Below, in pieces: positions 17,146 through 46,328 of a stretch of DNA of 47,116 bases. Location of the stretch: IMG/VR virus record IMGVR_UViG_3300036943_000490, positions 1 to 47,116 of that record; one strand, 5' to 3'. How positions within the stretch are numbered: the first letter of the stretch is position 1; the number at the start of each line of letters is the position of its first letter. A program made the translations under genes and the position numbers. The notes under the pieces are model-generated. The model saw nothing but the letters and a program-made list of their open reading frames with translations. It did not search any database and was not told the origin of the DNA. The stretch comes from a virus.

Positions 17146-17221
17146 TGGTGGTCATGGAAGGATTCGAACCTTCGACCTGTCGCTTATAAGGCAACTGCTC
17201 TAACCGCTGAGCTACATGACC
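17146..17221 (-). tRNA. tRNA-Ile, anticodon UAU, CCA encoded
   Basis: Hand-folded from the reverse complement: GGTCATG-TA-GCTC-AGCGGTTA-GAGC-A-GTTGC-CTTATAA-GCGAC-AGGTC-GAAGG-TTCGAAT-CCTTC-CATGACC-A-CCA. This is a 76-nt cloverleaf with all stems paired (one G-U); anticodon positions 34-36 are TAT. Confidence 0.85.
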
Positions 17222-28718: not shown

Positions 28719-29372
28719 TTGGTGGTGGAGATTATTAAGGAGACTGATTTTATATGTTGGGAGATTGCTTGGAGATATGTTATGATGATTTATGATGATA
28801 AAGAGCGGAGGTTTATGATGGCAGAAGCTTGTTTGACAGTCGGAGGCTTTGCGATTCCAAGGAAGGATTATTGGAATCCTGATAGAGAGAGTCGTAGAAA
28901 AAGACCTCCTGAGATGAGAAAATCCTTTCAAATAGCAGAGGTTCATGAGACTCATCATGAAATAGCGAGGAGACTTGTCCTCGGGCAAAAGCCAAAAGAG
29001 ATAGCAAAGGATCTTAATATTGGTTATGGGACTGTTCTCAATGTTAGAAGATCTCCGATCATTCAAGAGCAGATGAAAATTATGGGAGGTGCGAGAGATG
29101 CTGAGACTCATGATATCGCTAAGCAGATAAGAGATCTTACTCCAAAATGTGTTAAGGTCCTTGAAGAAATTATTGACGATGATGAAGTTGGTAAGTCTCT
29201 TAAGATGAAGGCAAGTCTTGCGGTTCTTGATCGAGCAGGTCATGCTGTTCCTAAGAATGTAAACGTTAAAGGTATGCATGCTGTCATATCAGCTCAAGAT
29301 CTTATCGCTATCAAAGAACGTGCCGCTGAGATAGGTATGATAGCAGATGAGGATGATATAATCGATGTCTGA
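28719..29372 (+). CDS. HTH DNA-binding protein, putative small terminase subunit (start codon uncertain)
   Basis: Sigma-70 region-4/LuxR-like HTH QKPKEIAKDLNIGYGTVLNVRR. Lies directly upstream of, and overlapping, TerL. Non-ATG start (TTG 28719 or GTG 28725), or ATG 28780. Confidence 0.45.
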   Translation: MVVEIIKETDFICWEIAWRYVMMIYDDKERRFMMAEACLTVGGFAIPRKDYWNPDRESRRKRPPEMRKSFQIAEVHETHHEIARRLVLGQKPKEIAKDLNIGYGTVLNVRRSPIIQEQMKIMGGARDAETHDIAKQIRDLTPKCVKVLEEIIDDDEVGKSLKMKASLAVLDRAGHAVPKNVNVKGMHAVISAQDLIAIKERAAEIGMIADEDDIIDV

Positions 29373-30897
29373 TAATCAAATTACAGGTCTTGATCAAGAA
29401 GCGTTAGACATCCTTGCAAGATGCTCTTTTGATACAAAGTCACATTCTCAATATTTTTTCAAAGATATATTTTTTTCTCCTTATTCGATCCTTCATGATC
29501 AGATTCTAGCCGCTATAGATTCTCACCATCAAAAAGTTGTTATAGCAGCTCCTCGTGGGCTTGGTAAAACTTCAACTATGATGTATGGAAAAGCAAGTCA
29601 GAAAATTCTCTTTCAGCTTTCGAATTTTTTCATATATCTTACAAATTCAGGCGATAATGCAGTTCTTCAGACAGAGAATCTTAAATATGAACTTTTATCA
29701 AATCCTTTAGTTCGTAAGCTCTTTGGATCGATAAAGATAAAATACGAAGAAGATATGGATGAAAGATTCTCAAAGAAGGCTTGGGTTACTTCCGGAGGCA
29801 CTTTTGTCTTACCTAGAGGGGCAGGACAACAAGTCCGTGGACTCTTATATCATTCAAAACGTCCCGATTTCGTTCTTATCGATGATCTTGAAGACAAAGA
29901 ACTCATTGCTTCTGATTTGCAAAGATCAAAGTTAAAAGAATGGTTTTATTCTGATGTTATGAAATGTGGAGATCAATATGGAAAGACGACGAAATTTATC
30001 TATATTGACACGCTTAAACATGAAGATGCGCTTCTTCAAGAACTTCTTGATTCCCCAGAATGGCACTCGGTTCATCTTTCTGTTTGCGATGATAATTATC
30101 ATTCTTATGCACCTGAGTTTATGTCTGATGATGAGATAGCAGCAGAGGTAGCAGAGCTTAAACGAAAAGGAAAGCTTGATGTTTTTTATCGTGAGATGAG
30201 AAATATTCCTGTTGCTTCTGAGACAGCTTCTTTTAAACCTGAATATTTTAAACCTTGTATTCTTGATGGAGATAAAATTCGTTGGAAGATAGATGAGCAA
30301 AACTTCTGTGTGAATGTTAAAGATCTTGTGACAGTTATTATTGTTGATCCAGCAAAAGAAGTTCAAATTCATAATGCTGATACTGCTATTGTTGGAGTTA
30401 GCATATCAAGAATAGATAAGAAAATATTCTTTCGCGCTTGCCATTCTGGAAAAATGTATCCAGATGAGATATATAAAAACTCTTTTAAAATGGCAAGAGA
30501 GCTTAAATCATATCTTATCTTTGTTGAAAAAACATCTCTTCATCAGTTTATAGAACAACCTTTTGAGAATCAGAAACGTTTAGAAAACTGGGTCGGTCAG
30601 CTTATATGGCTTGATGCGAAAGGTAAGAAAGAAGAACGTATAGCTCATCTTGCTCCTTATTATCGTCAAGGCTTTATATATCATGCACAAGGTGTTTCAA
30701 CAAAACTTGAATCTCAGCTAACAGGTTTTCCTCGTTCGAAGCTTTGGGATGTCATGGATGCCTTTGCATATATTCTTAAGATAATGAAAGAATATTTTAT
30801 TTATTTTGATTTTATAGAAGATGTTGATGATGTTGAAGAAGATGAATATAATGAATTAGAAGATGATGAGGTTATAGAATATGAAAGGATTGCTTAG
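29365..30897 (+). CDS. terL: Terminase large subunit
   Basis: Walker A VIAAPRGLGKTS, Walker B PDFVLIDDLED, and a C-terminal nuclease-type segment VIIVDPA...; 510 aa. Confidence 0.85.
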   Translation: MSDNQITGLDQEALDILARCSFDTKSHSQYFFKDIFFSPYSILHDQILAAIDSHHQKVVIAAPRGLGKTSTMMYGKASQKILFQLSNFFIYLTNSGDNAVLQTENLKYELLSNPLVRKLFGSIKIKYEEDMDERFSKKAWVTSGGTFVLPRGAGQQVRGLLYHSKRPDFVLIDDLEDKELIASDLQRSKLKEWFYSDVMKCGDQYGKTTKFIYIDTLKHEDALLQELLDSPEWHSVHLSVCDDNYHSYAPEFMSDDEIAAEVAELKRKGKLDVFYREMRNIPVASETASFKPEYFKPCILDGDKIRWKIDEQNFCVNVKDLVTVIIVDPAKEVQIHNADTAIVGVSISRIDKKIFFRACHSGKMYPDEIYKNSFKMARELKSYLIFVEKTSLHQFIEQPFENQKRLENWVGQLIWLDAKGKKEERIAHLAPYYRQGFIYHAQGVSTKLESQLTGFPRSKLWDVMDAFAYILKIMKEYFIYFDFIEDVDDVEEDEYNELEDDEVIEYERIA

Positions 30898-31930
30898 AGT
30901 AGCTATTATATTTTTAGTGTTTATTCAGAGTGCTTATGGTTCAAGTATTATATCATATACTCTTAATTCATCTCCTATTGATACAGATCAACTTATACTC
31001 ATCGATGATCCTTCAGGATCATGGTCAGTCAATCGTGTTACGATAGATGATATATTATCACTAATAGACGATGCAAATATTCCTGATACAATCACAGTTG
31101 GAGCCTCTGGAAGTGTTAATGCATCTGCTCTTCCAACTAATGTTCAAACATTTAATGCTATAACACCTTCTTCAAATGTTCAATCTCTTCTTGGAGCCGC
31201 AACATATGCAGCTATGAGAACTCTTCTTGATCTTGAAGCAGGAACAGATTTTTATTCAATAACAGCTGCCGATGCTGCTTTTGAGCCTCTTGGAGTAACT
31301 GAGAGTGATATATCCGATCTTGGAACAACTGTTACTTTAAATGCTGATACAGATGTTTCTGGAAATTCTTGGGTTCTTAATGAAGATGATTTTGCATCTG
31401 ATTCTGCTACGAAAGTTCCAACTCAGCAATCTGTCGGTGCTTATATAGCTGCACTTAAGCTTGATGATCTTGCATCGCCTGACGACAATACAGATCTTAA
31501 TGTTTCTATAACAGCTCATGGTCTTGTTCCAAAAGCACCGAATGATATAGAGCAATGGCTTCGTGGAGATGGTTCTTGGTCAACTATTCCTTATGATGGT
31601 TATGCACTTAATATAATTATAACAGATATAAGTACAGCTGGATATTATTATGTTCCTGTTCCTTATGCAGGAGATATAACATTAATCCAATCAGTTATAT
31701 CAGGAACTATAGCGACTGCTGATGTTACACTAACTGGTTATATTGGAGGAGTTGCTATTACAGATGGATCTATAACAGTTGCATATTCTGGTTCGGCAGC
31801 TGGTGATTATGATTCAGCGACTCCTTCAGGTGCAAACACTGTTGCAGCAGGTGATATTATTCGCATATATACTGATGGAGCTTCTACAAACACTGTGACT
31901 GCATCTATAACAATCTGGATTGAACGATAA
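30881..31930 (+). CDS. Signal-peptide protein with fibre-like domains (349 aa)
   Basis: MKGLLRVAIIFLVFIQSAYG/SS. Fibre-like motifs DTDQLILIDD...VTIDDILSLI, ATKVPTQQSVGAYI and WLRGDGSW. Confidence 0.6.
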   Translation: MKGLLRVAIIFLVFIQSAYGSSIISYTLNSSPIDTDQLILIDDPSGSWSVNRVTIDDILSLIDDANIPDTITVGASGSVNASALPTNVQTFNAITPSSNVQSLLGAATYAAMRTLLDLEAGTDFYSITAADAAFEPLGVTESDISDLGTTVTLNADTDVSGNSWVLNEDDFASDSATKVPTQQSVGAYIAALKLDDLASPDDNTDLNVSITAHGLVPKAPNDIEQWLRGDGSWSTIPYDGYALNIIITDISTAGYYYVPVPYAGDITLIQSVISGTIATADVTLTGYIGGVAITDGSITVAYSGSAAGDYDSATPSGANTVAAGDIIRIYTDGASTNTVTASITIWIER

Positions 31931-31955
31931 CTATATTCGTTTATTGAACAAAGGA
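31931..31955 (+). promoter_or_regulatory. IPM copy
   Basis: CTATATTCGTTTATTGAACAAAGGA, 8 nt before ATG 31964. Confidence 0.6.
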
Positions 31956-31963
31956 AATAGTCA

Positions 31964-32323
31964 ATGAAAAGATTTTTTATTACATTCTTAATTATTCTTT
32001 TTATTTCTTCTTTTGCATATGCGGATTCATTTGATATAGCATCTCCTTCAACTCAGACAGCTGATGCTGCTGTCATGAATAATGCAGGATATCTTAAAGG
32101 ATTTCTTATAACTCCTGATGGTACTAATGCTGTTACTATAACTTTTTATGATAATGCTTCTGCTGCTTCTGGGACTCAGTTAACTCCTGATATGACATTT
32201 GCAGGAGATGGTGGGACACAAGGAATAACCTTTCCAGCTTATGTGCAGTGTAAGAATGGGATTTATGCTGATATAACAACAGCTGGAACTGTTGAATATA
32301 CAGTTTATTATAGAGACAGATAA
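31964..32323 (+). CDS. Signal-peptide protein (119 aa)
   Basis: MKRFFITFLIILFISSFAYA/DS. Confidence 0.6.
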   Translation: MKRFFITFLIILFISSFAYADSFDIASPSTQTADAAVMNNAGYLKGFLITPDGTNAVTITFYDNASAASGTQLTPDMTFAGDGGTQGITFPAYVQCKNGIYADITTAGTVEYTVYYRDR

Positions 32324-32538
32324 TGAAAAAGTTTATCATAGTTATAATTTTGTTATTACTTTTATCATCGATAGTTTATGCAAAGATAGGTCTTGATCTT
32401 AGTCTAAGTCTTGGTTCGGGTTCTGGAACAGTTAGTGGTCCTGTAACTGGTGCACATTATCTTCTCATCGATGGATCAAGCCATTATCTTATCATAGATG
32501 GTAGTTCTCACAAATTAAGAATTGATGGAGCAATCTAA
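32323..32538 (+). CDS. Signal-peptide mini-protein (71 aa) with triple H-x-L-x-IDGSS repeat
   Basis: MKKFIIVIILLLLLSSIVYA/K, then AHYLLIDGSSHYLIIDGSSHKLRIDG. TAATG overlaps at both ends. Confidence 0.55.
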   Translation: MKKFIIVIILLLLLSSIVYAKIGLDLSLSLGSGSGTVSGPVTGAHYLLIDGSSHYLIIDGSSHKLRIDGAI

Positions 32539-34505
32539 TGAAACGCTTCGTTTATTTATTGAACATAGTTTTTATTTTTATTTCTCTCAATGTTTTTGCA
32601 GCTGATTATGATGGAGATAAGCAGATTGGATCATTAGATGCTCATGGAGGTTCGCTAGCAACAACTTCGAAAGCGCTAGTTCAAGATCCTGTTGATACTG
32701 ATATTATAACTACAATGACTCTTCAGGAAATAGTAACTACAGTTCTTGGTGCTGATTATGATACTGGAACTGAGCTTACGAATCTTTTTAATTCTAAAAT
32801 TGGCGCTGCTGATGTTCCGACAAATGAGACTGATCCAATTACAGGTACGATAACTGGCATAGTTAAAGCAAATGGCGCTGGAACAATTTCGGCAGCTGTT
32901 GCGGGGACTGATTATTTAACGCCGACTGGGGATGGTGCCGGATTATCAGGAGTCGTTACTTCTGAGAGTGATCCGAATGCTCTTTTAACTGTTGACACTG
33001 ATAATGTAAAAGATACTCATATTGATTGGGGTTCCGGCGCAGGACAAGTTAATGCTGATGACATTGCGGACGGGTCTACCAATGCCATTCCCACATTAAC
33101 CCAAGAGACCAATTGGGATACAATGGTCGGTTCTGGCGCACAGGCTGTAGGCTCTGGAGATGCTCCAACATTTGCGGCCACGAACATCAGTGAGCCGTCA
33201 AATAGTAAAGGTGTCTTGCCAACCACATCGGGGATTACTGATGGATACGTCCCAAAAAAACAGACCGATGGATCAGTGGCATGGGCAGTGGATTCGACTG
33301 GTGCTGGTGGAGATCAACTTGTTGACTTAGTAGCTACATCTCCATTGTTGGTAAACGAAACAACTAATGTCAACGATGCCCTCCCAGGATCAGATGCGGA
33401 TATCACTTTTTCAATGCCTGCGGCGACGAACAGTGCTGGTGGTTATATGACCGCCGCGCATGTTACTGCCCTTGAAGCCATCGACACTGAAGCGGAGCTT
33501 GAAGCGTTGCTTGAGGTAGCTGATCTTCAAGGGGATTTGGCCGCAACGAGAGTGACTTTTTCTCCGACAGGCACAATATCATCCACTACGGCACAGGCGG
33601 CGATTGCTGAGGTTGCTACGGAGGCGGCACAGACATCCGGTTTTACGATGGGTGCTGCGGGAATACCTTTCATCGTAAATTCTCAAAATATTACGATGGA
33701 AGGCTCTCCGACAGCGGCCAGGGTTCTTAATGTCGGCGATTTTGATATGGAGATTCCGGCGGCTACGGCGGTCAATGCAAGCGGGTTGATTCTTGCTGCC
33801 GGCATCGCTGATGGTGATCATGGAGCGTTCACTTATTCGAGCGGTATCGCTTCTTTGGATGCGAACACGGTTGACTCAGATCAGTATGTCGATGGTTCTA
33901 TTGATCCAGAACACGTCGCTTCGGGTGCATGGGACTTTGGAACATCAGCAGAGGCTGATACGATTACCGAGGGGGGAGTTGGAGTTCCTAACGTCGATGA
34001 GCTTGATGCTTCATCTGAACTAGCTGCCCTCATAGATGATGAGACCGGATCAGGATCTATTGTATTCTCTACGTCTCCGACGTTGGTTACTCCTATTCTC
34101 GGCATTCCCACCAGTGGGACGTTGACGAATTGTACCGGCCTACCTCCTGCTGCCGGTATCACCATAGCCCTGCCATCCTATTCGGCCGCCCAAACCCTTA
34201 CCTGGACGACAAACGGCAGACGAACGAATCTTTTTACTAATTCGACAACGGTAGAATTCACGGTTTGGGATTGCGAAACCGCAAATATCGGGCAGTCGTT
34301 CTCCGTGTGGGCGTCCGACGCCTCTCTTGAGGGCGTACCAGCCAGCGGAGATCATTTCGTTTTGTTCGATGGGACGGCATTGACTGCCAACTATGAGATT
34401 GACGTTCCTGCCGATGCGCGAGTAAAATTCGTTTGCACGGCAGATGATACATGGTCGGTGCATTCCGAAACAGATACAACCACAGATGGAGGGACGGCAG
34501 ACTGA
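32538..34505 (+). CDS. Signal-peptide fibre-like protein (655 aa), AT-rich N-terminus and GC-rich distal part
   Basis: MKRFVYLLNIVFIFISLNVFA/AD. Motifs DPVDTDIITTMTLQEIV and GTDYLTPTGDGAGLSGV. Composition switches near 32.85 kb. Confidence 0.6.
   Translation: MKRFVYLLNIVFIFISLNVFAADYDGDKQIGSLDAHGGSLATTSKALVQDPVDTDIITTMTLQEIVTTVLGADYDTGTELTNLFNSKIGAADVPTNETDPITGTITGIVKANGAGTISAAVAGTDYLTPTGDGAGLSGVVTSESDPNALLTVDTDNVKDTHIDWGSGAGQVNADDIADGSTNAIPTLTQETNWDTMVGSGAQAVGSGDAPTFAATNISEPSNSKGVLPTTSGITDGYVPKKQTDGSVAWAVDSTGAGGDQLVDLVATSPLLVNETTNVNDALPGSDADITFSMPAATNSAGGYMTAAHVTALEAIDTEAELEALLEVADLQGDLAATRVTFSPTGTISSTTAQAAIAEVATEAAQTSGFTMGAAGIPFIVNSQNITMEGSPTAARVLNVGDFDMEIPAATAVNASGLILAAGIADGDHGAFTYSSGIASLDANTVDSDQYVDGSIDPEHVASGAWDFGTSAEADTITEGGVGVPNVDELDASSELAALIDDETGSGSIVFSTSPTLVTPILGIPTSGTLTNCTGLPPAAGITIALPSYSAAQTLTWTTNGRRTNLFTNSTTVEFTVWDCETANIGQSFSVWASDASLEGVPASGDHFVLFDGTALTANYEIDVPADARVKFVCTADDTWSVHSETDTTTDGGTAD
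32546..32568 (+). promoter_or_regulatory. IPM-like sequence inside a coding region
   Basis: CTTCGTTTATTTATTGAACATAG encodes part of the signal peptide (RFVYLLNIV) of the 655-aa ORF. Confidence 0.4.
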
Positions 34506-34750
34506 TGAAAAAAGCAATTATGATTTTAGCGTTTTTGGGTCTGCCGTTTGTTGCAATTGCCGGTGAAATAAGTTTCGATGACCTCATCAAAACCGAGGCC
34601 CGACTCGAAATCCTGCAACGCCAATATGAGCAAAAATACAACGAGATCACAATTAATCTGGCCGTAGTAAAAGCTAAGATCGCCAAAGCAAAAATGGAGA
34701 AAAAGGACGATGAAAAGCCTGTTGAAAATCCTGCTAATACTGGCCGTTAG
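34505..34750 (+). CDS. Signal-peptide coiled-coil protein (81 aa)
   Basis: Start set to ATG 34505 (TGATG overlap with the upstream stop): MKKAIMILAFLGLPFVAIA/GE. Confidence 0.55.
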   Translation: MKKAIMILAFLGLPFVAIAGEISFDDLIKTEARLEILQRQYEQKYNEITINLAVVKAKIAKAKMEKKDDEKPVENPANTGR

Positions 34751-35366
34751 CCTTTGCCTGTGCGGTCCTGCATGGCCGTTTGACGATGATGAGATTTTGC
34801 AGCCGGTTGCGAGTGGTAGTCCGTCCTACTTACTCAACGAGTCATTTACCGGCACGGGAACGCCAACCGGTTGGTCAACATCAGGTACGGTTACGTTTAA
34901 TGATAATGCTACCCTGAGTAGTGATTATGCAATGTTAATATCACCATCTTTTACGGAGCAGTCAACTGCATATATAAAATTTGAATACACATCATCTGCG
35001 GTAGCATACGACTCGATCGCAATATTCTTTTATCTCCGTAACTCAACGACAACAATTGCAGAGATTAGAATCCAAAGCAACTGGCTTCCTATTATATATC
35101 ACGGAACTACTACCCAATATGGTAGTACGGGAGACGAATTTACAGCCGCAACAACACACTATGTGTGGATAGATTACGTTGCGTCATCTGGGTCAGATGA
35201 CGGTACATTTGATCTGTACATTAATACTTCTGATTCTAAACCAGGGGTTGCAACACTGAGTTTAACTGGCGGAACATCAACCGATGGTGTTGATAACATT
35301 CGGTTTTCTCGTCGTTTCCAAGATAATATTTTTGATAACGCTAAGGTAAGTGGCGATGAATTTTAA
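34710..35366 (+). CDS. Signal-peptide protein (218 aa), beta-rich
   Basis: MKSLLKILLILAVSLCLCGPAWP. The mature part is Ser/Thr/Gly-rich, suggesting a jelly-roll or lectin-like fold (inference only). Confidence 0.55.
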   Translation: MKSLLKILLILAVSLCLCGPAWPFDDDEILQPVASGSPSYLLNESFTGTGTPTGWSTSGTVTFNDNATLSSDYAMLISPSFTEQSTAYIKFEYTSSAVAYDSIAIFFYLRNSTTTIAEIRIQSNWLPIIYHGTTTQYGSTGDEFTAATTHYVWIDYVASSGSDDGTFDLYINTSDSKPGVATLSLTGGTSTDGVDNIRFSRRFQDNIFDNAKVSGDEF

Positions 35367-36699
35367 AACGTTTGTTTTGGTGTCGTTTCTTGCATCAATT
35401 GCGGCGACATCGTGGTGTAAAGATCTTTATGTTGCTACAAATGGTAGCGACTCAACCACTTATGCTGCAAACGATATCGACCACCCGTGGTTAACGATTG
35501 AGTATGCATGGGGATCAGCTCAATCTGGAGATATAGTTTTCTATCGAGCAGGTACCTATTCTATCACTACATCCTATGATAGTTTGGGAAATGCAGATAA
35601 CGTCACTCACCAGCCCTATAATGGTGAAACTGTGATTTGGGATACTAATCAGACGTTAGAGGCAATCCGAGTTGGAAACGAATATATTACCATTGATGGA
35701 TTTATTATAGATGGTAGTTCCTTAACAGGCAGCGAGGCTGGTTTTTTTCGGGTTGGGTATGATAATCCAGCGACACATTTTACATTAAAAAATTGTACTG
35801 CTACCATTGGATTCTGCTCGGATAATTGTGGAGTTGTTCATGCAAGGAGCACGTATGCCAATTATCTGAAAGTAGAAAATAATACTCTAACAGGAAGCGG
35901 TTTTGGAGGGGGTGGGATTAGCAATTCATCCGTGGTTTGGCTTGACGCACTTCTTTATGCTGAAATTATAAATAATACAATTAGTTATGCTCCTGTTGGT
36001 ATTTATTATAAGCACAGCAATGAGAGATTGGTTGATGCTGGACCATTGATACAAAATAATTACGTTTACAATTGCAGTAGGAATGGGATGTTGCTGCATT
36101 GCAATTATGGAAGGATAATAAACAATCTCTTGGTTGACGCCAGTATATCATCTGGTCAGAATGGTGGTGAATCCGATCCTGGAGGAGCTGGATCTGATTA
36201 CAACGAATATTCACACAACACTTTATACAATACGCACTGGAGCTCAGTGTGTGCTGATGGTAGCGATCCAGGATCTACACATAATATTGTCTCTAATAAT
36301 ATTTTTTATGGTTACCCATTTCGTCCAGAGTTTGAAAATTCGTGTTCTGAGGATATGTTTTTATCAGGAGACTATAATCTTTTTCCATCTGGAACAGCAG
36401 TCATATATCGATCAACGAACTATACACTGTCAGCTTGGCAATCTGTTTATTCTACTGACATTAATTCGATTTCAGATGAGCCGTTATTTGTTGGAGCCGG
36501 ATCACCAGCATCAATTTCCGACTATGCTCTCACTACTGAATCTCCAGGATATCAAGATTGCGCCGATGGTACGGATATGGGGGCTGACGTTTCGTTGGTT
36601 GGAGTCAACGCATCTAGCGGTGGAATCAGAAAAACATATGATGCTGGATCATCAGCAATGACATTCGGTGGCAGCACGCCGACGACATTTGCAGAATAG
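35356..36699 (+). CDS. Signal-peptide right-handed parallel beta-helix protein (pectate-lyase-like; candidate glycan depolymerase)
   Basis: MNFKTFVLVSFLASIAATSWC. Periodic rungs: ENNTLTG, INNTISY, QNNYVYN, INNLLVD, SHNTLYN, SNNIFYG. ATG 35356 preferred over GTG 35350. Confidence 0.6.
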   Translation: MNFKTFVLVSFLASIAATSWCKDLYVATNGSDSTTYAANDIDHPWLTIEYAWGSAQSGDIVFYRAGTYSITTSYDSLGNADNVTHQPYNGETVIWDTNQTLEAIRVGNEYITIDGFIIDGSSLTGSEAGFFRVGYDNPATHFTLKNCTATIGFCSDNCGVVHARSTYANYLKVENNTLTGSGFGGGGISNSSVVWLDALLYAEIINNTISYAPVGIYYKHSNERLVDAGPLIQNNYVYNCSRNGMLLHCNYGRIINNLLVDASISSGQNGGESDPGGAGSDYNEYSHNTLYNTHWSSVCADGSDPGSTHNIVSNNIFYGYPFRPEFENSCSEDMFLSGDYNLFPSGTAVIYRSTNYTLSAWQSVYSTDINSISDEPLFVGAGSPASISDYALTTESPGYQDCADGTDMGADVSLVGVNASSGGIRKTYDAGSSAMTFGGSTPTTFAE

Positions 36700-36870: not shown

Positions 36871-37119
36871 ATGACGGAAGTGACAGTAAGTTATTCAGAA
36901 GAAGAGTTTCAGAAACAAAAATCAATTGATGATAAACTTCTTATGTTATTTAGATTAATGGCAGCTCAACAAGCAACGTGCTGTAAAACTCAAAATAATT
37001 TTAATCAACAAATAAAAATATTAGAGTCTCGTAAATGGCTTGATAGAGTTATTGTAGCAATAGCTTCATCTGTAGCCACTATTGGAGCATTGCTTGGAAT
37101 AGGAGGAAATAATGGATAA
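36871..37119 (+). CDS. Small protein with C-terminal transmembrane segment (82 aa)
   Basis: C-terminus VIVAIASSVATIGALLGIGG; GGAG SD upstream. Confidence 0.5.
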   Translation: MTEVTVSYSEEEFQKQKSIDDKLLMLFRLMAAQQATCCKTQNNFNQQIKILESRKWLDRVIVAIASSVATIGALLGIGGNNG

Positions 37120-37258
37120 AGATATTTCTAGGAATTTATTGGATGATCATAATATTATCTTATATGGTTTATTTATGCTTGGTATAATAACACCAGATAT
37201 GCGAGGAGAGATAATTTCAGCTATTATAGCCTTTTGGACAAGGAATAAAATTAAATAA
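37112..37258 (+). CDS. Small membrane ORF (48 aa), below the ORF-track cutoff
   Basis: Hand translation: MDKDISRNLLDDHNIILYGLFMLGIITPDMRGEIISAIIAFWTRNKIK. AGGAGG lies 5 nt upstream, and it overlaps the upstream stop. Confidence 0.5.
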   Translation: MDKDISRNLLDDHNIILYGLFMLGIITPDMRGEIISAIIAFWTRNKIK

Positions 37259-37290: not shown

Positions 37291-37524
37291 ATGAAAAAAT
37301 TATTAATATTCTTACCATTTATAATGATTGGTTGTACATCTATATCAGCAGAGTATAATGGAATGGAAGTTAATTATAACAGATTTGGTTCTAGGAATAT
37401 CAAACAAATAGAGTTTGAAGCTGCAGAAAACACACTTAAGGCGAAAGTAAAAGGTGTAGAAGATTCTGAGGGTGTGTCTCAAAATTTATCTAATATTGTT
37501 AAAATTCTTGAAGCCGCTCAATAA
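37291..37524 (+). CDS. Small putative lipoprotein (77 aa)
   Basis: MKKLLIFLPFIMIGC/TS lipobox-like. Confidence 0.5.
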   Translation: MKKLLIFLPFIMIGCTSISAEYNGMEVNYNRFGSRNIKQIEFEAAENTLKAKVKGVEDSEGVSQNLSNIVKILEAAQ

Positions 37525-37558: not shown

Positions 37559-39493
37559 ATGCCTCATATAGCATATGGAGATATAAGTAGTAAGAATGTA
37601 GCAAATTTTTCGTCTTATAATTTTGACTACGCTTATCCAAAAGGTTTGAATCTTAAACCAGGAACAAAGCTTCATGATGATCTTGTAGATAAGATTATAA
37701 AACGAGCTACTGATTCTGCCACTAATATGTCTAATAGATTTGAATCGTGGCAAAAGATTGATCAAACTCTTACTACTTATATAGACCTTTCAGATGATGA
37801 AAAGAAACTTAATGTTAAAGATGCATCAAAGCCAGTTTCAATCGTTTTTCCTCATACTTATGCTATTTTAGAGACTATTCTTGGTTATTTGATTTCAGCA
37901 TTTTTTCAAGAACCTATCTTTCGTTACGAAGGTGTTGGACCTGACGATACGATAGGAGCGATTATGATGGAGAAGATTATTGATCTTCAGGTTAATCGCG
38001 CAAGAATGATTCTTGGTTTGCATACACAGTGGAGAGATTGCCTCGCTTATGGTTTTGGAGTTCTTGCACCTTCTTGGCATATTGAGAAAGGTTATAAGAC
38101 TGTTAAGAAAACTAAGTCTCGATGGTTTGGTCCTGATGAAAATTATAAAGCATTTGAAGAAGCAGTTCTTTTTGAAGGAAATCAGGTTTCAAATATTGAT
38201 CCTTATCTTTGTCTTCCTGATCCAGATCGACCGATAACCGAAGTTAATAAAAGTGAATACTTTGGATGGATTGAGAACACTAATTATTATGATCTTCTTT
38301 CTCTTGAAAGAGATGATGATTCTTACTTTAATGTTAAGTATCTGCAGGCATTAGCTAATAAACGAACTTCAATTTATACTGCAGATAATTCTGGTAGAAA
38401 TGCTAAGATCGACACACTTAAAATTAATGATAATACTTACACTAAACCGACAGATATTATTCATAAGTATGTAAAAATTATTCCTAAAGAATGGAAGATA
38501 GGAGATGAAAATTATCCTAAAATCTATCTATTCTCTATCGCAAGTGATAAAGTTCTTATTCGGATGCAGCCTCTTGGGCTTACTCATGGTCAGATTCCTA
38601 TTTGCATTGCCGCTCCTGATTATGATGGTTATTCTATTAATCCTATATCACGCCTTGAAATTCTTTATGGAATGCAACATACGTTAGATTGGATGTTTAA
38701 TACTCATGTTGCGAATGTTAGAAAGGCTATTAACGATACTATTATTTATGATCCTTATCTTCTTAACTCTAATGATCTTAAAGATCCAAAACCCGGTGGA
38801 CTTGTTAGACTAAGAAAAGCTGCTTGGGGAAGAGGCGTTAAAGATACATTTGCACAGCTTGGAATTACAGATGTAACCAGAGGACATATTGCTGATGCTG
38901 AATTAATAAAGCATGCAATGGAAAAAGTTGGTGGTGTTGATGCTTCATCAATGGGCAGTCTAAGACAAGGAGGTCCAGAGCGTTTAACAGGTGCAGAATT
39001 TAGGGGAACCCAAGCTGGGACGTTCACTCGCTTAGAGCGCATAGCTAGAATTATTGGTGTTCAATCTATGCAACCTCTCGGATATATGCTAGCTCATCAT
39101 ACACAGCAGTTTATGTCTGAAGAAGTTTATATGAATATGTCAGGAAGATGGCAAGAGACTCTTATGAAAGAGTATCAGGCTACAGATCCTAATAATAAAA
39201 TTAAAGTTTCACCTTTTGATATTCTTGTTGACTATGATCTTAAGGTTAGGGATGGATCAGTTCCTGGTGGTAATTATTCAGCTGTCTGGGTTAAGATGTT
39301 TGAGGTTTTAGCAAATCATCAAGAATTACTTCAGACCTTTGATATAGCAAAGATTTTTACTCATATAGCTAGAAATGAAGGAGCTAAGAATGTTGAAAGT
39401 TTCCTTCGAATTCGACAACAGCCTACTGAACAAGTTCAACAACAAGTTCAGGATGGAAACCTTATTCCAACATCGGAGCTTATGGCAGCATGA
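37559..39493 (+). CDS. Portal protein
   Basis: 644 aa, upstream of scaffold and capsid. The N-terminal region (RFESWQKIDQ...PVSIVFPHTYAILETILGYL) resembles podovirus head-tail connector proteins, from memory. Confidence 0.7.
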   Translation: MPHIAYGDISSKNVANFSSYNFDYAYPKGLNLKPGTKLHDDLVDKIIKRATDSATNMSNRFESWQKIDQTLTTYIDLSDDEKKLNVKDASKPVSIVFPHTYAILETILGYLISAFFQEPIFRYEGVGPDDTIGAIMMEKIIDLQVNRARMILGLHTQWRDCLAYGFGVLAPSWHIEKGYKTVKKTKSRWFGPDENYKAFEEAVLFEGNQVSNIDPYLCLPDPDRPITEVNKSEYFGWIENTNYYDLLSLERDDDSYFNVKYLQALANKRTSIYTADNSGRNAKIDTLKINDNTYTKPTDIIHKYVKIIPKEWKIGDENYPKIYLFSIASDKVLIRMQPLGLTHGQIPICIAAPDYDGYSINPISRLEILYGMQHTLDWMFNTHVANVRKAINDTIIYDPYLLNSNDLKDPKPGGLVRLRKAAWGRGVKDTFAQLGITDVTRGHIADAELIKHAMEKVGGVDASSMGSLRQGGPERLTGAEFRGTQAGTFTRLERIARIIGVQSMQPLGYMLAHHTQQFMSEEVYMNMSGRWQETLMKEYQATDPNNKIKVSPFDILVDYDLKVRDGSVPGGNYSAVWVKMFEVLANHQELLQTFDIAKIFTHIARNEGAKNVESFLRIRQQPTEQVQQQVQDGNLIPTSELMAA

Positions 39494-41616: not shown

Positions 41617-41774
41617 ATGGCTGTTCTTGGGATGAGAGGTAACGGCGATTGGGTAACTGATCAAAGACCGAAAAATTGGCGAGAGAAAATTCTGCAGCTT
41701 TATCCTAACGGTGATGCTCCGTTGACTGCGATTTTGTCAATGATGAAATCTCAGTCGACAGATGATCCGGAGTT
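41617..41774 (+). CDS. Major capsid protein, exon 1
   Basis: AAAGGAG SD; MAVLGMRGNGDWVTDQRPKNWREKILQLYPNGDAPLTAILSMMKSQSTDDPEF. The frame then hits TAG, and TAA 27 nt later. It continues in phase at 42597 after intron removal (DPEF|NWWTKGLAV). Confidence 0.7.
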
Positions 41775-42596
41775 TAAATAGTTGGACTCCCTTAGGCGAA
41801 ATCCTAAGTAAAAAACAGTGAGATATGCTGGAACTTCCTAAAGCCAATGTTACCACAGAGTAAAAATACAAAGGATAAAACAATGGATAATCAGCAGGGA
41901 AAAACTTATGAATCAGGTATAAATGCTATGGCTTATGTATTAGGTGCATTTCAAGGTGATGGTTATTATAAATATCATTACTATGGAAATGGAGGCTGGT
42001 ACATAATTGAGATTAGTAAGGGTGATAAAGAGGTGATAGAACGCTGTCAGTTTATCATAAATAGTGTTTTTAATACTTCATATTCCTTACTAAGTAGAAG
42101 AATAAAGAGTGGACTTATCATTTGGACCTTGAGAACCAGTAAAAAAGTTATTTATGATTTTATGACTATAGCTACTGGATTTAAAACTATGATTCCACAT
42201 GCTATTATTACTGGTGACAAACAGACACAGTTAAATTATATATCTGGATTATTTGATACAGATGGTAGTGTAGCAATGAATAATGATAGGTTTCAACTTA
42301 AATACTCTTCTGTAGAACTTAAAGTCATAGAGAGTGTGGCTTTATTATTACAACGTCTTGGAGTTAAGGTTGGTAAAATAGGTTCTTATAATAAAGGTGG
42401 TTATAAGACCGTTTATAATATTCAACCTAATATTAGAAGTTTTATAGACGCTGGATGTATATTTTATAATAATAAGAAAGCTTCTCGTATTAAAGCCTAT
42501 ATTAATAAGTTTGCCTCAGAGACTTTGCACACTGAGTCCATAACTATGGATTAAGATAAAGTCCGGCTTATGGCGAAAGTCATAAGGTGTCCACTG
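41775..42596 (+). mobile_element. Group I intron (822 nt) carrying a LAGLIDADG homing endonuclease ORF
   Basis: P1: exon GGAGTT (41769-41774) pairs with GACTCC (41785-90), with the terminal U-G wobble at U41774-G41785. P10: AGTTG (41780-84) pairs with the first exon-2 bases CAACT (42597-42601). The last intron base is G42596. P2-like hairpin cttagg-cgaaat-cctaag (41791-41808). GAAA-tetraloop hairpin cttatggc-gaaa-gtcataag (42567-42586). Confidence 0.75.
41847..42554 (+). CDS. LAGLIDADG homing endonuclease (double-motif)
   Basis: Two motifs: YVLGAFQGDGY and YISGLFDTDGSV. Lies entirely inside the intron. The true start may be the internal ATG at 41883. Confidence 0.8.
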   Translation: MLPQSKNTKDKTMDNQQGKTYESGINAMAYVLGAFQGDGYYKYHYYGNGGWYIIEISKGDKEVIERCQFIINSVFNTSYSLLSRRIKSGLIIWTLRTSKKVIYDFMTIATGFKTMIPHAIITGDKQTQLNYISGLFDTDGSVAMNNDRFQLKYSSVELKVIESVALLLQRLGVKVGKIGSYNKGGYKTVYNIQPNIRSFIDAGCIFYNNKKASRIKAYINKFASETLHTESITMD

Positions 42597-43725
42597 CAAC
42601 TGGTGGACTAAAGGCTTAGCTGTTCAGGCTGCTGCAGTTACTAATGTTTATACTGATGCAGGTATGACAACTGCTTATACAACTGGTGGAGCTGCTGCTG
42701 ATACACTTTATGCTAAAGTTGCTACATCTGATTTAGCTAAACAATTTCGTCCTGGACATCAGGTGCTTCTTAGGAATTCTGATAACTATGCTGATGATAC
42801 AAATGCTAAAGTTGTTTCTGTTACTCCAAATGGGTCATCTTCTCAAATCGCTGTAACATTGCTTGAAGCTGATCCGACTACGACTGGTATTGCAGATTGT
42901 GATAGGATTCTTATTATAGGTAATATCAATGCTGAGGGCGCTGCTATGCCTCAGGCGGTTGCATATGATCCTACTAAATATTATAACTATACTCAAATCT
43001 TTCGAACTCCTTTGAGTATTACTCGAACGGCTCGTAAGACTCGTCTTCGTACTGGTGATCAGTATAAGGAAGCCAAACGTGAGGCTCTTGAGCTTCATTC
43101 TATTGAAATGGAAAAGGCTTTCATGTACGGTATTAAGACTGAGAATACTGGATCAAATGGTCAGCCTGAGCGTACAACTGCTGGTCTTGTTCGTTCTATT
43201 ATTGATAATAGTGGAAATGTATCTAATTTTGTGACTGAGACTGATACTGATTATGCTGGAAAAACTTGGCTTGAAGCTGGTGAAGAGTGGCTTGATGCTC
43301 AGTTGACTGAAATCTTCCGATATGGTGGAACAGATCGTATGGCTTTTTGTGGTACGACTGCAATTCTTGCTATTAACAAACTTGTTAAGGAATATGGTTC
43401 TTATAAGCTTGAATCTGGGACTGCTGAATATGGGATTAAGGTTAAAACATGGATGACTCCTTTTGGAGATATTCATCTGAAGGTTCATCCGCTTTTTTCT
43501 TATGAGGCAACGGATCGAGCTAATATGGTTATCTTTGATCCTAAGGATCTTGTCTATCGTTATATCGATGATACTACTTTTTATAAGGAAGGAGAAAAAC
43601 AAAACACTGGTCGTGGAAGGATTGATGGAACTGACGAGGAATTCTTGACTGAAGCTGGTCTTGAATTTCATCATTATGCTAAGACTGGTTTTCTTACCGG
43701 TTTTGGTACTGATAATACTCAGTAA
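42597..43725 (+). CDS. Major capsid protein, exon 2
   Basis: In phase with ORF 42664..43725, and open from 42597 (c aac tgg tgg act aaa ggc...). Joined product is about 428 aa. Followed by a strong terminator. Confidence 0.7.
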
Positions 43726-43783: not shown

Positions 43784-44020
43784 ATGATGGATATTAAGGA
43801 AATTAAAAAGAAGAAATCAGAAGCTGAATCTTCTATATTAGAAATATTAAAACAATTTGAAAAAGATACTGGTATATATATTAGCTATGCATCTGCTTCT
43901 GTAGATAGATATGGAGGAGATATGCCAGTATGTGGTGCTAATGAGAAACCTAGAAAAGCTAAACCGAAAGGTTTATATGATTTTAATATATCTATTCAGT
44001 TTGATAAAGAGGAATACTAA
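43784..44020 (+). CDS. Hypothetical protein (78 aa)
   Basis: ATG 43784 (MMDIKEIKKK) with a GGAG SD is preferred over the track's TTG 43772. Confidence 0.55.
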   Translation: MMDIKEIKKKKSEAESSILEILKQFEKDTGIYISYASASVDRYGGDMPVCGANEKPRKAKPKGLYDFNISIQFDKEEY

Positions 44021-44736
44021 TGGATCTTGTAACACTAAGACAAAAATTTGTAGAACTATCTGGTCATTATGATCTTGTTGTTAATACAACTGATTGGGCA
44101 GATAATGGTGCAGATTTTTATATAAATGCTGCTCAAGAATGGCTTGATAGAAATTCAAACTTTTGGAAAAAGACAAGTCGTCTTTATGATGAGTTATCTG
44201 TTGGAACTTGGTATAAAACTTTTCAACGTTGTAGAATTATAGAAGATGTTTATATTAATAACTCTGAGGGAAGATCAAAACTCGAAAAGAAAGATTTTCA
44301 TTATATTCATGAAAATTATAGTTCGCTTATAAGTGATACAGATCAAGGAACTCCTCTTTATTATTGTCCAGCAAATCTTAGAACACAAGATGCTACAGAT
44401 GTAGATAATCTTGGAGCTTTCTTTAATTATACTATGGCAGATGATGAAACCTATCGCGGTGTTCTCATTTTTCCACCTCCTGATGAAGCTATAGTAATTG
44501 AGGTCTTTGGTCAGTTTTATTCAGCTGATTTATCTGATGATGCTGATGAAAGTTTTTGGTCTATTAATCATCCTTCTCTTCTTATTCTTGCATCACTTTA
44601 TCAACTTGAAATTTTAGCTCATCGTAATACACAAGGAGCAAATGATTATCTTATCCAACTTCAGCGTGAGATAATGAGTCTGGATAAAGATATTGCAGAA
44701 GAAGAATCTTTTGGAGTTAATCAGATAGAGGATTAA
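44020..44736 (+). CDS. Hypothetical protein, possible head-tail adaptor (238 aa)
   Basis: TAATG overlap with the upstream gene. Position after the capsid gene; function is positional inference. Confidence 0.35.
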   Translation: MDLVTLRQKFVELSGHYDLVVNTTDWADNGADFYINAAQEWLDRNSNFWKKTSRLYDELSVGTWYKTFQRCRIIEDVYINNSEGRSKLEKKDFHYIHENYSSLISDTDQGTPLYYCPANLRTQDATDVDNLGAFFNYTMADDETYRGVLIFPPPDEAIVIEVFGQFYSADLSDDADESFWSINHPSLLILASLYQLEILAHRNTQGANDYLIQLQREIMSLDKDIAEEESFGVNQIED

Positions 44737-44737
44737 A

Positions 44738-45253
44738 ATGAAAGATACTGTTATTATTCAGGGTAATACAGATTCTGAAAAATGGGAACATCTTGAGATT
44801 GTTCTCAAAAGAATGTTTCGAAGACTTAATCATACAGTAGTAGGAATTATGCCAAAGATTCCAGTTATGAATTATGTTAAGGATTCTGAAGATGGCTTCT
44901 TAGGAAGATTCTTAGTTCCTTCAAATGGAATTTTAGAAACATTTGATGCTTATGTTGGACTTAAACAACTTGATGATTCAGGTGATATTATTGAACCTAC
45001 ATTTAAAATCTTAATCAAGCGTGGATTGACTGAGATATCAAACGTAGTTGATAAGGATAAACTTGGATCTTCTATTAATGTTAATATGTCAGTACAACCA
45101 GATGATATTATTGAGATTTATACAGATAAAGGAATTTCTTTTATAAGTTTTAGTATGCTTTTTTCATTTGATGAAAGTTCTTCTAATGCACAGCAGGTTA
45201 TGATAAGTAAAATAGAGCAACTTGCATTGGATCATATTAATGCAGACGATTGA
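44738..45253 (+). CDS. Hypothetical virion-block protein (171 aa)
   Basis: ORF track; 1-nt gap to the upstream gene. Confidence 0.55.
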   Translation: MKDTVIIQGNTDSEKWEHLEIVLKRMFRRLNHTVVGIMPKIPVMNYVKDSEDGFLGRFLVPSNGILETFDAYVGLKQLDDSGDIIEPTFKILIKRGLTEISNVVDKDKLGSSINVNMSVQPDDIIEIYTDKGISFISFSMLFSFDESSSNAQQVMISKIEQLALDHINADD

Positions 45254-46328
45254 TCCTTATGATAGCTGTGATCAAGCTGGATATATGTTTTCCAGAGCAT
45301 CTGGAATATTTAATGTTTTTATAGGCAGAGATACTATTCTATATGTAAATGGTGGAGTACCACCTTATACTTGGTCGATAACAGGAAATGATTTTGATCT
45401 TGATAAAACTGTAACAACTGTTCAATATAATTTAGTTCGTGCTAATGCAAATACAGTTGTTAGAGAAAGTGCAGAAGAAATAACTGTCACAGATTCTTGT
45501 GGAAATGAAGCAACTTTTTTTGTTCAGTGTTGTTCTACTTATACTTGTTGTGAGGAATTTGCTGATGTTTTTACTGTTGATGATATAGATTCTTTTGGTG
45601 ATGCAGGATATAAAATTATAAAGGTTTATACTGGTTGCCCACCTTTTAGTTGGATTAGCGAAGATTTATCTAAAGCTTATTTTAAATCTCGTTATACTAA
45701 TAGTAGAACTAATATATTATATTATGCTATAGATGAACCTTATGGCTGTGCATACAATGTTACAGATTCTTGTGGTAATGTGGCAAATGGTAGTATAACA
45801 TATCCAGATTGGTTTTTTCCAAATAACTGTGGAATGTGGGATGGTTACAATTTACCAGATCCTGGCTTTGAGTTGACTACAGGAGCAGATGATTATACAT
45901 ATTGGAATTTTAATCCACATAATGTCGGTAAGGCTTATGATTTTAATTCTAATGGTTGGGTAGATTGTTATAAAGATGGTAATATAGAGCCATTCTGCCC
46001 AGGTTTAGGTCAATTTATTATTTTTTATGTATCTGATGGATCTCAGATAACTATAAGAGCTAAACTAAAAAGAACTGGTTGGTACAATTTTTATGGCTTT
46101 AGATTTTCTTTATTTATATGTAATGAATCAGGTAGTATTATTCAAACTATGCGTTTGGGAAAAGCTTTTACTTCTATAAGTACTTCTTGGACTTATTATG
46201 ATTTTGTATTTGATGTATCTAATCCAGACGCTTATGGAGCTTGGTTTAGTTTTGAAAATTATAATTCAATTAATGTTGGAGTAACTATATCTGTTGGTAA
46301 TATATCAATATCTAAGAGTAGATTCTAA
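45240..46328 (+). CDS. Cys-rich protein with two tandem Ig-like/SprB-like repeats (candidate adhesin or fibre component)
   Basis: Repeat 1: NGGVPPYTWSITG...ITVTDSCGNEA. Repeat 2: TGCPPFSWISED...YNVTDSCGNVA. ATG 45240 preferred over TTG 45222. Confidence 0.5.
   Translation: MQTIDPYDSCDQAGYMFSRASGIFNVFIGRDTILYVNGGVPPYTWSITGNDFDLDKTVTTVQYNLVRANANTVVRESAEEITVTDSCGNEATFFVQCCSTYTCCEEFADVFTVDDIDSFGDAGYKIIKVYTGCPPFSWISEDLSKAYFKSRYTNSRTNILYYAIDEPYGCAYNVTDSCGNVANGSITYPDWFFPNNCGMWDGYNLPDPGFELTTGADDYTYWNFNPHNVGKAYDFNSNGWVDCYKDGNIEPFCPGLGQFIIFYVSDGSQITIRAKLKRTGWYNFYGFRFSLFICNESGSIIQTMRLGKAFTSISTSWTYYDFVFDVSNPDAYGAWFSFENYNSINVGVTISVGNISISKSRF

Follow-up and report, generated by a model that had tools for sequence, protein, structure and literature searches.

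The DNA analysed here is the virus record IMGVR_UViG_3300036943_000490 of IMG/VR, 47,116 nt in length, and the whole of this stretch is referred to below as the window. Its two ends (1-127 and 46990-47116) repeat each other over ~127 bp, and because of this overlap the window represents a complete genome of ~47 kb (~46,989 bp), which is either circular or terminally redundant. Between the TerL gene and the portal gene of this phage lies a block of seven open reading frames (ORFs), all on the + strand at 30881-36699, which encode proteins of 349, 119, 71, 655, 81, 218 and 447 amino acids (aa) and occupy 5.8 kb or 12% of the genome. An earlier note on this DNA, made from the sequence alone, had described these ORFs as translationally coupled and as starting throughout with Sec-type signal peptides. 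Its positions, including the end of TerL at 30897 and the start of the portal gene at 37559, were found to be correct, and the coupling is borne out as well, as six of the seven junctions overlap (TerL/ORF1 by 17 nt, ORF2/3, ORF3/4 and ORF4/5 by 1 nt each in ATGA, ORF5/6 by 41 nt and ORF6/7 by 11 nt), the sole spacer being the 33 nt between ORF1 and ORF2. Promoter-like or terminator-like sites at the block are no commoner than in shuffled sequences, and the idea of a separate transcription unit was dropped for this reason.

All leader calls were made with our own rule set and not with a trained predictor. In each of the seven ORFs, K or R at positions 2-6 is followed by an uncharged hydrophobic region (h-region) of 9-13 residues, which is the length of a leader as opposed to the ~20 residues of a membrane anchor, then by a polar c-region and by an early mature part that is neutral or acidic. 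The best 10-residue Kyte-Doolittle window reaches 2.6-4.1 for six ORFs; for ORF5 the call is based on the rule set alone. Leaders are thus called on all seven, as the earlier note had it, whereas its A-x-A-like cleavage sites are clear for ORF1-5 only, with small residues at -3/-1 (AYG, AYA, VYA, VFA and AIA); ORF6 and ORF7 each offer several weaker candidates. A canonical lipobox ([LVI][ASTVI][GAS]C) occurs in none of the seven, the 'SLC/LCG' of ORF6 and the 'TSWC' of ORF7 being non-canonical, and is present in ORF10 downstream of the block, in an ORF of the opposite strand (9474-9680) and in nine homologues of ORF4. The same rules flag only two of the ~64 other ORFs of the genome, namely the two lipoproteins just mentioned, and in phage T7, which served as a control, only Rz and one spurious ORF. 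The family-wide leader rate among ORFs of at least 150 aa is 56/615 (9%), and seven consecutive leaders would be expected by chance at ~5e-8 per position. Leaders are present on about 5% of prophage CAZymes (PMC13507307).

One could argue that such N-termini arise by chance from AT-rich codons, or that the starts were mis-called and the true ones lie further downstream. The leader-coding 60-mers of ORF1-4 share 52-55% nucleotide identity, which is above background and might suggest that leaders spread by duplication, but could be a composition effect in this AT-rich genome. On the other hand, leaders are found in 7/7 ORFs of the block vs 2/~64 elsewhere in the same genome, a Shine-Dalgarno-like (SD) motif precedes each of the seven leader-including starts with no SD-backed internal start able to skip the leader in any of them, and leaders are kept in distant homologues from 34% to 47% GC. 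The probability of this explanation is next to nil, and we regard it as effectively refuted already. Leaderless isoforms produced from a second start were considered too and dropped, as no SD-backed internal start exists.

For ORF7 at least, the homologues favour export. Twelve of its 13 homologues possess a leader. One of them (P0011) is located in a bacterial exopolysaccharide (EPS) export locus, between the Wza/Wzc/glycosyltransferase genes and WbaP, another (P0008) is chromosomal, and a third is found in an unrelated phage (L086), just upstream of a portal gene of the Phage_portal_3 type and beside three more leader ORFs. A precomputed match to Pfam PF22842 (Pel9A-like_beta_helix) exists for ORF7 and 12/13 homologues; it is weak in the case of ORF7, for which our own hmmscan gave no Pfam family at E <= 0.1. 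The AlphaFold2 (AF2) model, built with the homologue alignment, is a right-handed parallel beta-helix (pLDDT 80.8, pTM 0.84) that starts at residue ~23, right behind the leader helix, with no particle-binding or N-terminal adaptor domain. The comparison of this model with the PDB by Foldseek, a check proposed in the earlier note, identified a Pel9A-like beta-helix, with matches at probability 1.0 to PL9 (rhamnogalacturonan and pectate lyases, Pel9A 1ru4), PL6 (alginate lyases and chondroitinase B) and GH136. These, together with RbmB (9ozl), are secreted bacterial lyases and hydrolases and rank best, while phage tailspikes match weakly. A fold search in BFVD returned generic beta-helix matches only, which do not separate virion from secreted proteins; the PDB sequence search was uninformative, and tblastn against 50,697 phage records gave no match. 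From its fold and its relatives, the Cys-rich ORF7 protein is a candidate polysaccharide lyase or hydrolase of the secreted type.

ORF1 and ORF4 were assigned to tail-fibre families, in agreement with the 'fibre/depolymerase-like' label that the block had been given before, its depolymerase part corresponding to the beta-helix of ORF7. ORF1 matches phrog_1197 ('tail protein', 7e-6) and phrog_6813 and has 4413 homologues at E <= 0.001 in a library of 1.84 billion proteins, a pool dominated by tail-fibre families of PHROG; in a sample of 98 homologues, 22 match phrog_24210 and others match several more 'tail fiber' PHROGs. Its PDB sequence matches are T4 fibritin and foldon-tagged constructs only and are weak (E ~1). 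A single-sequence AF2 model of ORF1 was unusable (pLDDT 30), and the phage records contained one tblastn match. ORF4 has 73 homologues, which have modules of 40-100 residues in common at 55-85% identity, and shares modules with annotated fibres; here the phage records gave five short tblastn matches, and the PDB sequence search was uninformative. It is presumed from these families that ORF1 and ORF4 are trimeric tail-fibre-derived proteins that bind glycans.

The export signals of the ORF4 family vary in kind. Under the rule set, 27 of the 73 homologues carry a leader of the signal peptidase I (SPase-I) type, 9 a lipobox (together 36/73 with a leader), 9 a transmembrane (TM)-like N-terminus and 28 none of these, the nearest 30 homologues being the most enriched (18 with leader, 6 TM-like). 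The nine lipoboxes are canonical L-x-G/S-C motifs (e.g. LLSG/C, SFSG/C, LLGG/C, the slash marking the predicted cleavage), often followed by Pro-rich tethers, and are found among others in P0016-18, P0026 and P0078. The C-terminal half of ORF4 itself is 56% identical to a lipoprotein of the phage contig L090 (47% GC). A lipobox makes sense only on an exported protein, and homologous mature proteins should exchange SPase-I for SPase-II signals only if they are truly exported. We therefore consider it firmly supported, as far as sequence analysis goes, that the N-termini of the seven ORFs are genuine Sec export signals of predicted SPase-I type, from which we infer actual export and cleavage.

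The same N-termini could be uncleaved signal anchors which tether the proteins at the inner membrane for the purpose of assembly or timing and not of export. A hydrophobic N-terminus is the only feature common to all seven, and the 9/73 TM-like homologues of ORF4 would fit such a role. Tethers are nevertheless very improbable given that the h-regions span just 9-13 residues and are followed by helix-breaking c-regions with AxA-type sites, that canonical lipoboxes alternate with them among homologues and that the cellular relatives of ORF7 are ordinary secreted proteins; a type-II anchor would anyway leave the bulk of the protein in the periplasm.

The remaining members of the block are small. 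Scans of the seven ORFs and the three mini-ORFs downstream of them with Pfam, NCBIfam and PHROG gave almost nothing. No homologue of ORF2 was detected in any fetched locus, ORF5 had no significant family match in the three collections, and ORF6 retrieved only itself among 5.8 billion proteins and matched nothing in Pfam, PHROG, NCBIfam or the PDB, so that a lectin or jelly-roll fold for it is a guess. A relationship of ORF2 and ORF6 to leader ORFs of similar size in L086 and L088 was considered and was not significant. The mini-ORFs are as the earlier note had described them, an 82-aa protein with a C-terminal TM helix (ORF8), a 48-aa TM protein (ORF9) and a 77-aa lipoprotein (ORF10). By architecture and position only, and with no significant BLAST match, ORF8 resembles a small protein that follows TerL in many relatives, and would mark the downstream border of the insertion. 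ORF10 is a possible outer-membrane spanin to judge from its lipobox and a weak PHROG match; as for a complete lysis cassette, the scanned ORFs include neither a protein of i-spanin architecture nor a recognisable endolysin.

Table 1. Features of the window (positions refer to the whole stretch; a slash marks the predicted cleavage site of a leader)
Feature	Position	Strand	Length (aa)	Description
TerL (upstream border)	29365..30897	+		43% identical to annotated TerL of Desulfofustis phage LS06-2018-MD01; 156 related loci
ORF1	30881..31930	+	349	leader MKGLLRVAIIFLVFIQSAYG/SS; foldon-like motif aa ~210-236 GLVPKAPNDIEQWLRGDGSWSTIP; C-terminal beta-rich domain aa ~240-349
ORF2	31964..32323	+	119	leader MKRFFITFLIILFISSFAYA/DS; small beta-rich orphan; weak phrog_28102 (function not known) 5.7e-4
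ORF3	32323..32538	+	71	leader MKKFIIVIILLLLLSSIVYA/K; mature part 51 aa with three YL(L/I)IDGSSH-like repeats; orphan
ORF4	32538..34505	+	655	leader MKRFVYLLNIVFIFISLNVFA/AD; mosaic tail-fibre-like protein
ORF5	34505..34750	+	81	leader MKKAIMILAFLGLPFVAIA/GE; mature part charged, predicted helical/coiled-coil; orphan
ORF6	34710..35366	+	218	leader MKSLLKILLILAVSLCLCGPA..., cleavage site uncertain; beta-rich; orphan
ORF7	35356..36699	+	447	leader MNFKTFVLVSFLASIAATS/WC, site ambiguous; alternative GTG start 35350
ORF8	36871..37119	+	82	no leader; C-terminal TM helix
ORF9	37112..37258	+	48	one TM helix; holin-like is a guess
ORF10	37291..37524	+	77	lipoprotein MKKLLIFLPFIMIG/CTS; phrog_9385 'Rz-like spanin' 7.6e-4 (weak)
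Portal (downstream border)	37559..39493	+		precomputed PF23899 SU10_portal; phrog_332, phrog_15554; 83 related loci
Cys-rich ORF	45222..46328	+	368	outside the block, between adaptor-like and nozzle-like genes; leaderless; called from TTG, true start uncertain
Nozzle-like gene	46328 to 838, across the end junction		~499
Lipoprotein ORF	9474-9680	-	68	MKKLLIISSLIILSS/CTATTGK
Family A DNA polymerase	12032-14686	-		uracil-DNA-glycosylase-superfamily domain (aa 27-178), then 3'-5' exonuclease and polymerase domains
tRNA-Ile	17146-17221	-		anticodon TAT
Major capsid gene (split)	41617-43725	+		exon 1 41617-41775; exon 2 42598-43716; HNH/endonuclease-like ORF 41847-42554; sub-threshold Rfam group I intron match 42433-42585

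To place the block in context, ~160 related contigs were fetched, and the distance between TerL and portal was determined in the 69 distinct loci that hold both genes. It lies between 158 nt and 9.3 kb (median 1.26 kb), a spread which identifies this junction as a hot spot for cargo; the two genes are essentially contiguous in 18/69 loci, which answers the question of their normal arrangement raised in the earlier note. The usual content is the small protein with a C-terminal TM helix and, beside it, a leaderless protein (77-691 aa) whose N-terminus, 'RIGS...YDD', is conserved. The latter was also searched for elsewhere in the window and is absent. A leader ORF is found in the gap in 7/69 loci, with a maximum of 3, and the seven of the window are thus exceptional within their own family. 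We regard the block as a cassette of cargo genes placed in this variable junction. By its TerL, the nearest named phage is Desulfofustis phage LS06-2018-MD01 (43% identity), megablast of the region against cultured phages gave zero matches, a scan of genome contigs for the host yielded an unclassified groundwater contig from a metagenome-assembled genome as its sole match, and in a scan of metagenomes for relatives the best TerL identity was 51%. A sister contig with a 73% identical TerL (L095) was reached only via its homologue of ORF1.

The base composition of the cassette is not uniform. GC content at third codon positions (GC3) is 0.11-0.18 in ORF1-3 (0.11 in ORF1) and 0.31-0.43 in ORF4-7, compared with 0.20-0.22 in TerL and portal (0.215 in TerL), and within ORF4 the first 300 nt, which encode leader and N-terminus, have a GC content of 0.36 and the remainder one of 0.46-0.53. 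By this measure, ORF1-3 are native and ORF4 is a recombinant that has kept its own leader-encoding 5' end; the 3' part of ORF4 through ORF7 was acquired recently from a GC-richer source, to judge from the GC/GC3 break ~300 nt into ORF4.

Runs of 4-8 leader ORFs for fibre, beta-helix or lectin-like proteins are seen in at least five unrelated backbones of uncultivated phages, usually abutting lysis genes on their upstream side. In detail, L086, with a Phage_portal_3 portal backbone, has four leader ORFs followed by the portal gene; L088/L089, with a P22-type portal and an SU10 adaptor, have a run of four, the first of which is a 642-aa lipoprotein, followed by a TerL-like gene; in L090, a 60-kb contig, leaders are present on 7/8 ORFs between a 2123-aa protein and an M15 peptidase; L179 (47.5 kb) contains eight consecutive leader ORFs of 66-1103 aa, then an M15 endolysin, a holin-like protein and a lipoprotein; and L180 (33.5 kb) encodes a leaderless 658-aa fibre, then five consecutive leader ORFs and lysis-like genes. 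With their leaders removed, the proteins of these runs form shared mosaic families (fibre-like proteins, two groups of beta-helices and one group each of ~230 aa and ~360 aa). Membership of the cassette in a mobile pool of leader-bearing modules, usually beside lysis genes, is firmly supported by these comparisons. The earlier note knew of no described phage module of this kind. Our full-text literature search likewise found no tailed phage described as having several consecutive genes for leader-bearing proteins derived from tail fibres; the module is recurrent, however, and not unique to this phage.

Two further observations concern the region upstream of TerL in the relatives. Directly upstream of TerL, ~28 of the 50 loci with enough upstream sequence (L007, L013, L028, L041, L051, L054-L063, L069-L073, L078, L091 and others) encode a beta-helix protein of 618-965 aa with the leader AxA/EFFSDVIV and the mature N-terminus EFF(S/R/P)D(V/I)IVT..GIWTDSRAY. 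Its first ~230 residues are ~50% identical and the remainder is unalignable; it is often found near lysis and glycosyltransferase genes, a variant in L018 has lost the h-region, and it is absent from the window. Cargo also accumulates in the relatives at a second hot spot, between TerS and TerL (L020 5642-9000; L041 1641-7973; L070 779-10001; L045 1671-4454), where lipoprotein, small TM protein, M15-like endolysin, GT2-type glycosyltransferase and epimerase-like genes are found together with genes for 700-959-aa proteins beginning 'LYPY.G.GLDSW.DHGAGM'. In the window, TerS and TerL overlap.

We propose that the cassette is a late, exported, non-virion module which acts on the glycans of the host envelope, a reading to which we give about an even chance. 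The glycan-directed nature of the predicted cargo, i.e. fibre-derived binders plus a lyase-like helix, appears firmly supported by the sequence families. The seven proteins would be made late, from the same operon as terminase and portal, and would cross the inner membrane via Sec, away from the cytoplasm in which heads and tails are built. ORF7 would be a polysaccharide lyase or hydrolase similar to the exported enzymes encoded in the exopolysaccharide loci of bacteria, the fibre-derived ORF1 and ORF4 would bind glycans, and ORF2, 3, 5 and 6 might be small partners without a known fold. Once in the periplasm or at the cell surface, these proteins would bind and cut the host's own capsule, EPS or O-antigen shortly before the adjacent small membrane and lipoprotein genes cause lysis, with the outcome that progeny are not trapped in the matrix and that receptors on debris are destroyed or masked.

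Export together with cleavage, the substrate, the timing and the non-virion status of the proteins are what we infer in this proposal. It is preferred because of the secreted-enzyme character of ORF7 and its relatives in EPS loci, the lipoprotein variants, the adjacency of such runs to lysis cassettes and the leader-bearing beta-helix protein beside TerL in the wider family, and further because a leaderless fibre and a run of leader ORFs can coexist, as both are present in L180, and because the window itself encodes a leaderless candidate for a receptor-binding protein (RBP). This 368-aa Cys-rich protein, the only such candidate of the genome, contains two Ig-like repeats of the form PP(Y/F)(T/S)W, ends in a beta-rich part, has no family or PDB match and was found in no other of the 176 loci compared. 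Between the exported effectors and the role in virion assembly that the earlier note had put forward side by side, export is favoured for ORF7, while the fibre-like members could still be virion parts.

Several points weigh against this proposal. The families of ORF1 and ORF4 are those of bona fide tail fibres, and the closest homologue of ORF1 (P0091, 54% identical) is leaderless although it occupies the same position directly after TerL in L095, a sediment contig. The alignment of P0091 with mature ORF1 sets in at about residue 24, and the downstream ORFs of L095 are leaderless too (0/3 vs 7/7 in the window), so that the pattern between the sisters is all-or-none. A more distant homologue (P0130, 34-35% identical) has a leader, as does its neighbour, and proteins of the ORF1 type are thus predicted to exist both with and without one. 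Leaderless relatives had been named in the earlier note as evidence against export, and in this one sister they were partly found; the same protein works from the cytoplasm there, presumably on the virion. In addition, the cassette may replace a virion appendage, since the window lacks the leaderless 'RIGS...YDD' protein usual at the junction. The C-terminal domain of ORF1 (aa 241-349) is 43% identical to gp61 of Pelagibacter phage HTVC106P (L177 3983-4330), a stand-alone gene of 115 aa directly after the annotated head protein gene, and might by this similarity bind capsids or serve as a decoration module. Furthermore, it would be costly to devote 12% of the genome to non-structural proteins, the lysis neighbourhood is weaker than in L090, L179 and L180, as the scanned ORFs include no recognisable endolysin, and the leader calls are rule-based only.

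The main alternative is that the cassette encodes a receptor-binding complex of the virion, with fibres and a depolymerase, that is exported, folded and oligomerised in the periplasm and docks on finished but fibreless particles only at lysis. We hold this to be possible but on the whole unlikely. The tail-fibre homology of ORF1 and ORF4 and the foldon-like trimerisation motif of ORF1 (PDB E ~1) would be explained, and so would the alignment of mature ORF1 with its leaderless orthologue from the first residues, by which any docking domain would be retained, the replacement of the relatives' variable 'RIGS' protein and the all-or-none pattern between the sisters. Several beta-helices, fibres and small connectors resemble branched multi-RBP sets, the Cys content of ORF7 fits periplasmic disulfide formation, and the addition of fibres or spikes to fibreless T4 and P22 particles in vitro is classical. 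However, we know of no tailed phage that routes virion proteins via Sec; the lipoprotein versions of ORF4 would be lipid-anchored and hard to load on particles, ORF7 is without an N-terminal adaptor domain and belongs to a family that is cellular and secreted, a leaderless RBP candidate is present in the genome, and assembly after lysis would suffer from dilution. Its generalisation, a lineage-spanning class of tailed phages that send their whole receptor-binding apparatus (fibres, depolymerases and connectors) through the host Sec pathway, in some cases with lipoprotein signals, assemble it in the periplasm and join it to fibreless particles only at lysis, is in our estimate rather improbable.

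The lipoprotein variants also bear on a role in receptor masking or superinfection exclusion, in which the exported proteins would bind the phage's own receptor, a glycan or protein in the envelope of the producing cell, and ORF7 would trim it, so as to block secondary infection and the loss of progeny on debris. The cassette would then be an analogue of T5 Llp or Cor made up of several proteins. In favour of it are the export signals, the descent of the proteins from receptor-binding modules, the location of the exclusion genes Llp and Cor beside RBP genes and the glycosyltransferases among the cargo of relatives. It is improbable considering that these are late-operon genes of an apparently virulent phage with no integrase or repressor among the scanned ORFs, that seven genes and 5.8 kb go far beyond the needs of known exclusion proteins and that 0/7 are lipoproteins.

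As for the rest of the genome, it is that of an apparently virulent podovirus whose portal is of the SU10 type. TerS, TerL, portal, scaffold-like, major capsid (HK97-type), adaptor-like (44020-44736) and nozzle-like proteins are encoded, as well as P22 gp7-like and giant ejection proteins and the phage's own replication and nucleotide genes (PolA fused to a uracil-DNA-glycosylase (UDG) domain, ligase, a PD-(D/E)XK nuclease, a DUF3987 helicase-like protein, methylase, thymidylate synthase and dCMP deaminase); neither integrase nor repressor nor endolysin was recognised among the ORFs scanned. The polymerase, with its UDG-superfamily domain at the N-terminus, and a tRNA-Ile gene are listed in Table 1. 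The lipoprotein gene on the - strand is located in the early/replication arm, flanked by the thymidylate synthase gene and a 77-aa ORF adjoining the dCMP deaminase gene; it is without homologue in the fetched loci and possibly encodes an early exclusion-type lipoprotein. The major capsid gene is split. Exon 1 corresponds to aa 1-53 of the major capsid protein of L003 (83% identity) and exon 2 to aa 54-432, and the 822-nt insert between them contains the HNH/endonuclease-like ORF and the intron match (24 bits with a gathering score of 50, E 0.0013). Judging by these matches, a group I intron carrying a homing endonuclease is the probable identity of the insert.

In textbooks, tail fibres and tailspikes exemplify virion parts that are assembled in the cytoplasm, and they are the main handle for host-range prediction and phage engineering. 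If the cassette encodes exported helpers, there would be a so far unrecognised multi-gene module for envelope remodelling or exit beside the lysis cassette, acting on an extra layer (capsule or matrix), and pipelines would mislabel these phages wherever they call each fibre-like or beta-helix gene 'tail fibre/depolymerase = virion RBP'. Should the cassette encode virion parts instead, tailed-phage assembly would have a periplasmic branch, outside the cytoplasm, which has not been described for Caudoviricetes. The window phage with its 7/7 leaders and the sister L095 with its leaderless orthologue are a natural pair for comparison.

Canonical tail fibres have no signal peptide and are assembled in the cytoplasm. 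Repeat modules of ORF1 and ORF4 recur in thousands of fibre proteins, and the foldon-like motif of ORF1 recalls T4 fibritin; in contrast, every member of the cassette has a predicted cleavable leader, and relatives even have lipoprotein signals. Virion proteins with cleavable Sec leaders are represented by pIII and pVIII of the Ff inoviruses, which are parked in the envelope before assembly and are, to our knowledge, the only well-known precedent for leader-bearing receptor-binding proteins. Those phages are filamentous, contain single-stranded DNA and are extruded, whereas this genome encodes TerL, a portal, an HK97-type major capsid protein and ejection proteins, and this assignment was rejected.

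Lom and Bor of lambda are leader-bearing envelope proteins within the late structural region, encoded by single genes and expressed from the prophage. A moron of this type, i.e. from a temperate phage and with its own promoter and terminator, was rejected as well: no integrase or repressor was seen among the scanned ORFs, the genes overlap within the late operon, and there is no sign of lysogeny but seven coupled genes of fibre or glycanase character. Llp of T5 and Cor of phi80, N15 and T1 are exported lipoproteins that block the receptor and are encoded near RBP genes. They resemble the cassette in being phage-encoded, exported by the host Sec system and linked to RBP genes, and they protect progeny from debris and block superinfection; they are, however, single small non-fibre lipoproteins, while the proteins described here are late, of the SPase-I type and up to 655 aa in length.

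Sec-exported or signal-arrest-release (SAR) endolysins such as Lys44 of Oenococcus phage fOg44 and Lyz of P1 also are late phage proteins that pass through host Sec before lysis and are encoded near holins and spanins, but no muralytic domain was recognisable in any of the seven proteins in the Pfam, PHROG and NCBIfam scans. PghP of Bacillus phage PhiNIT1 and free tailspikes are soluble non-virion depolymerases, leaderless and released by lysis, which degrade glycans or capsules away from the particle and thereby aid the spread of progeny; export of the cassette proteins would precede lysis. In fold, finally, ORF7 is like the secreted beta-helix lyases (Pel9A 1ru4, the PL6 alginate lyases, chondroitinase B and RbmB 9ozl of Vibrio cholerae) and the periplasmic glycanases of EPS operons. 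With these it also shares a Sec leader, a size of ~400-450 aa without added domains and, through one homologue, a place within a Wza/Wzc/WbaP locus, and it differs from them in being encoded in the late operon of a phage, between terminase and portal.

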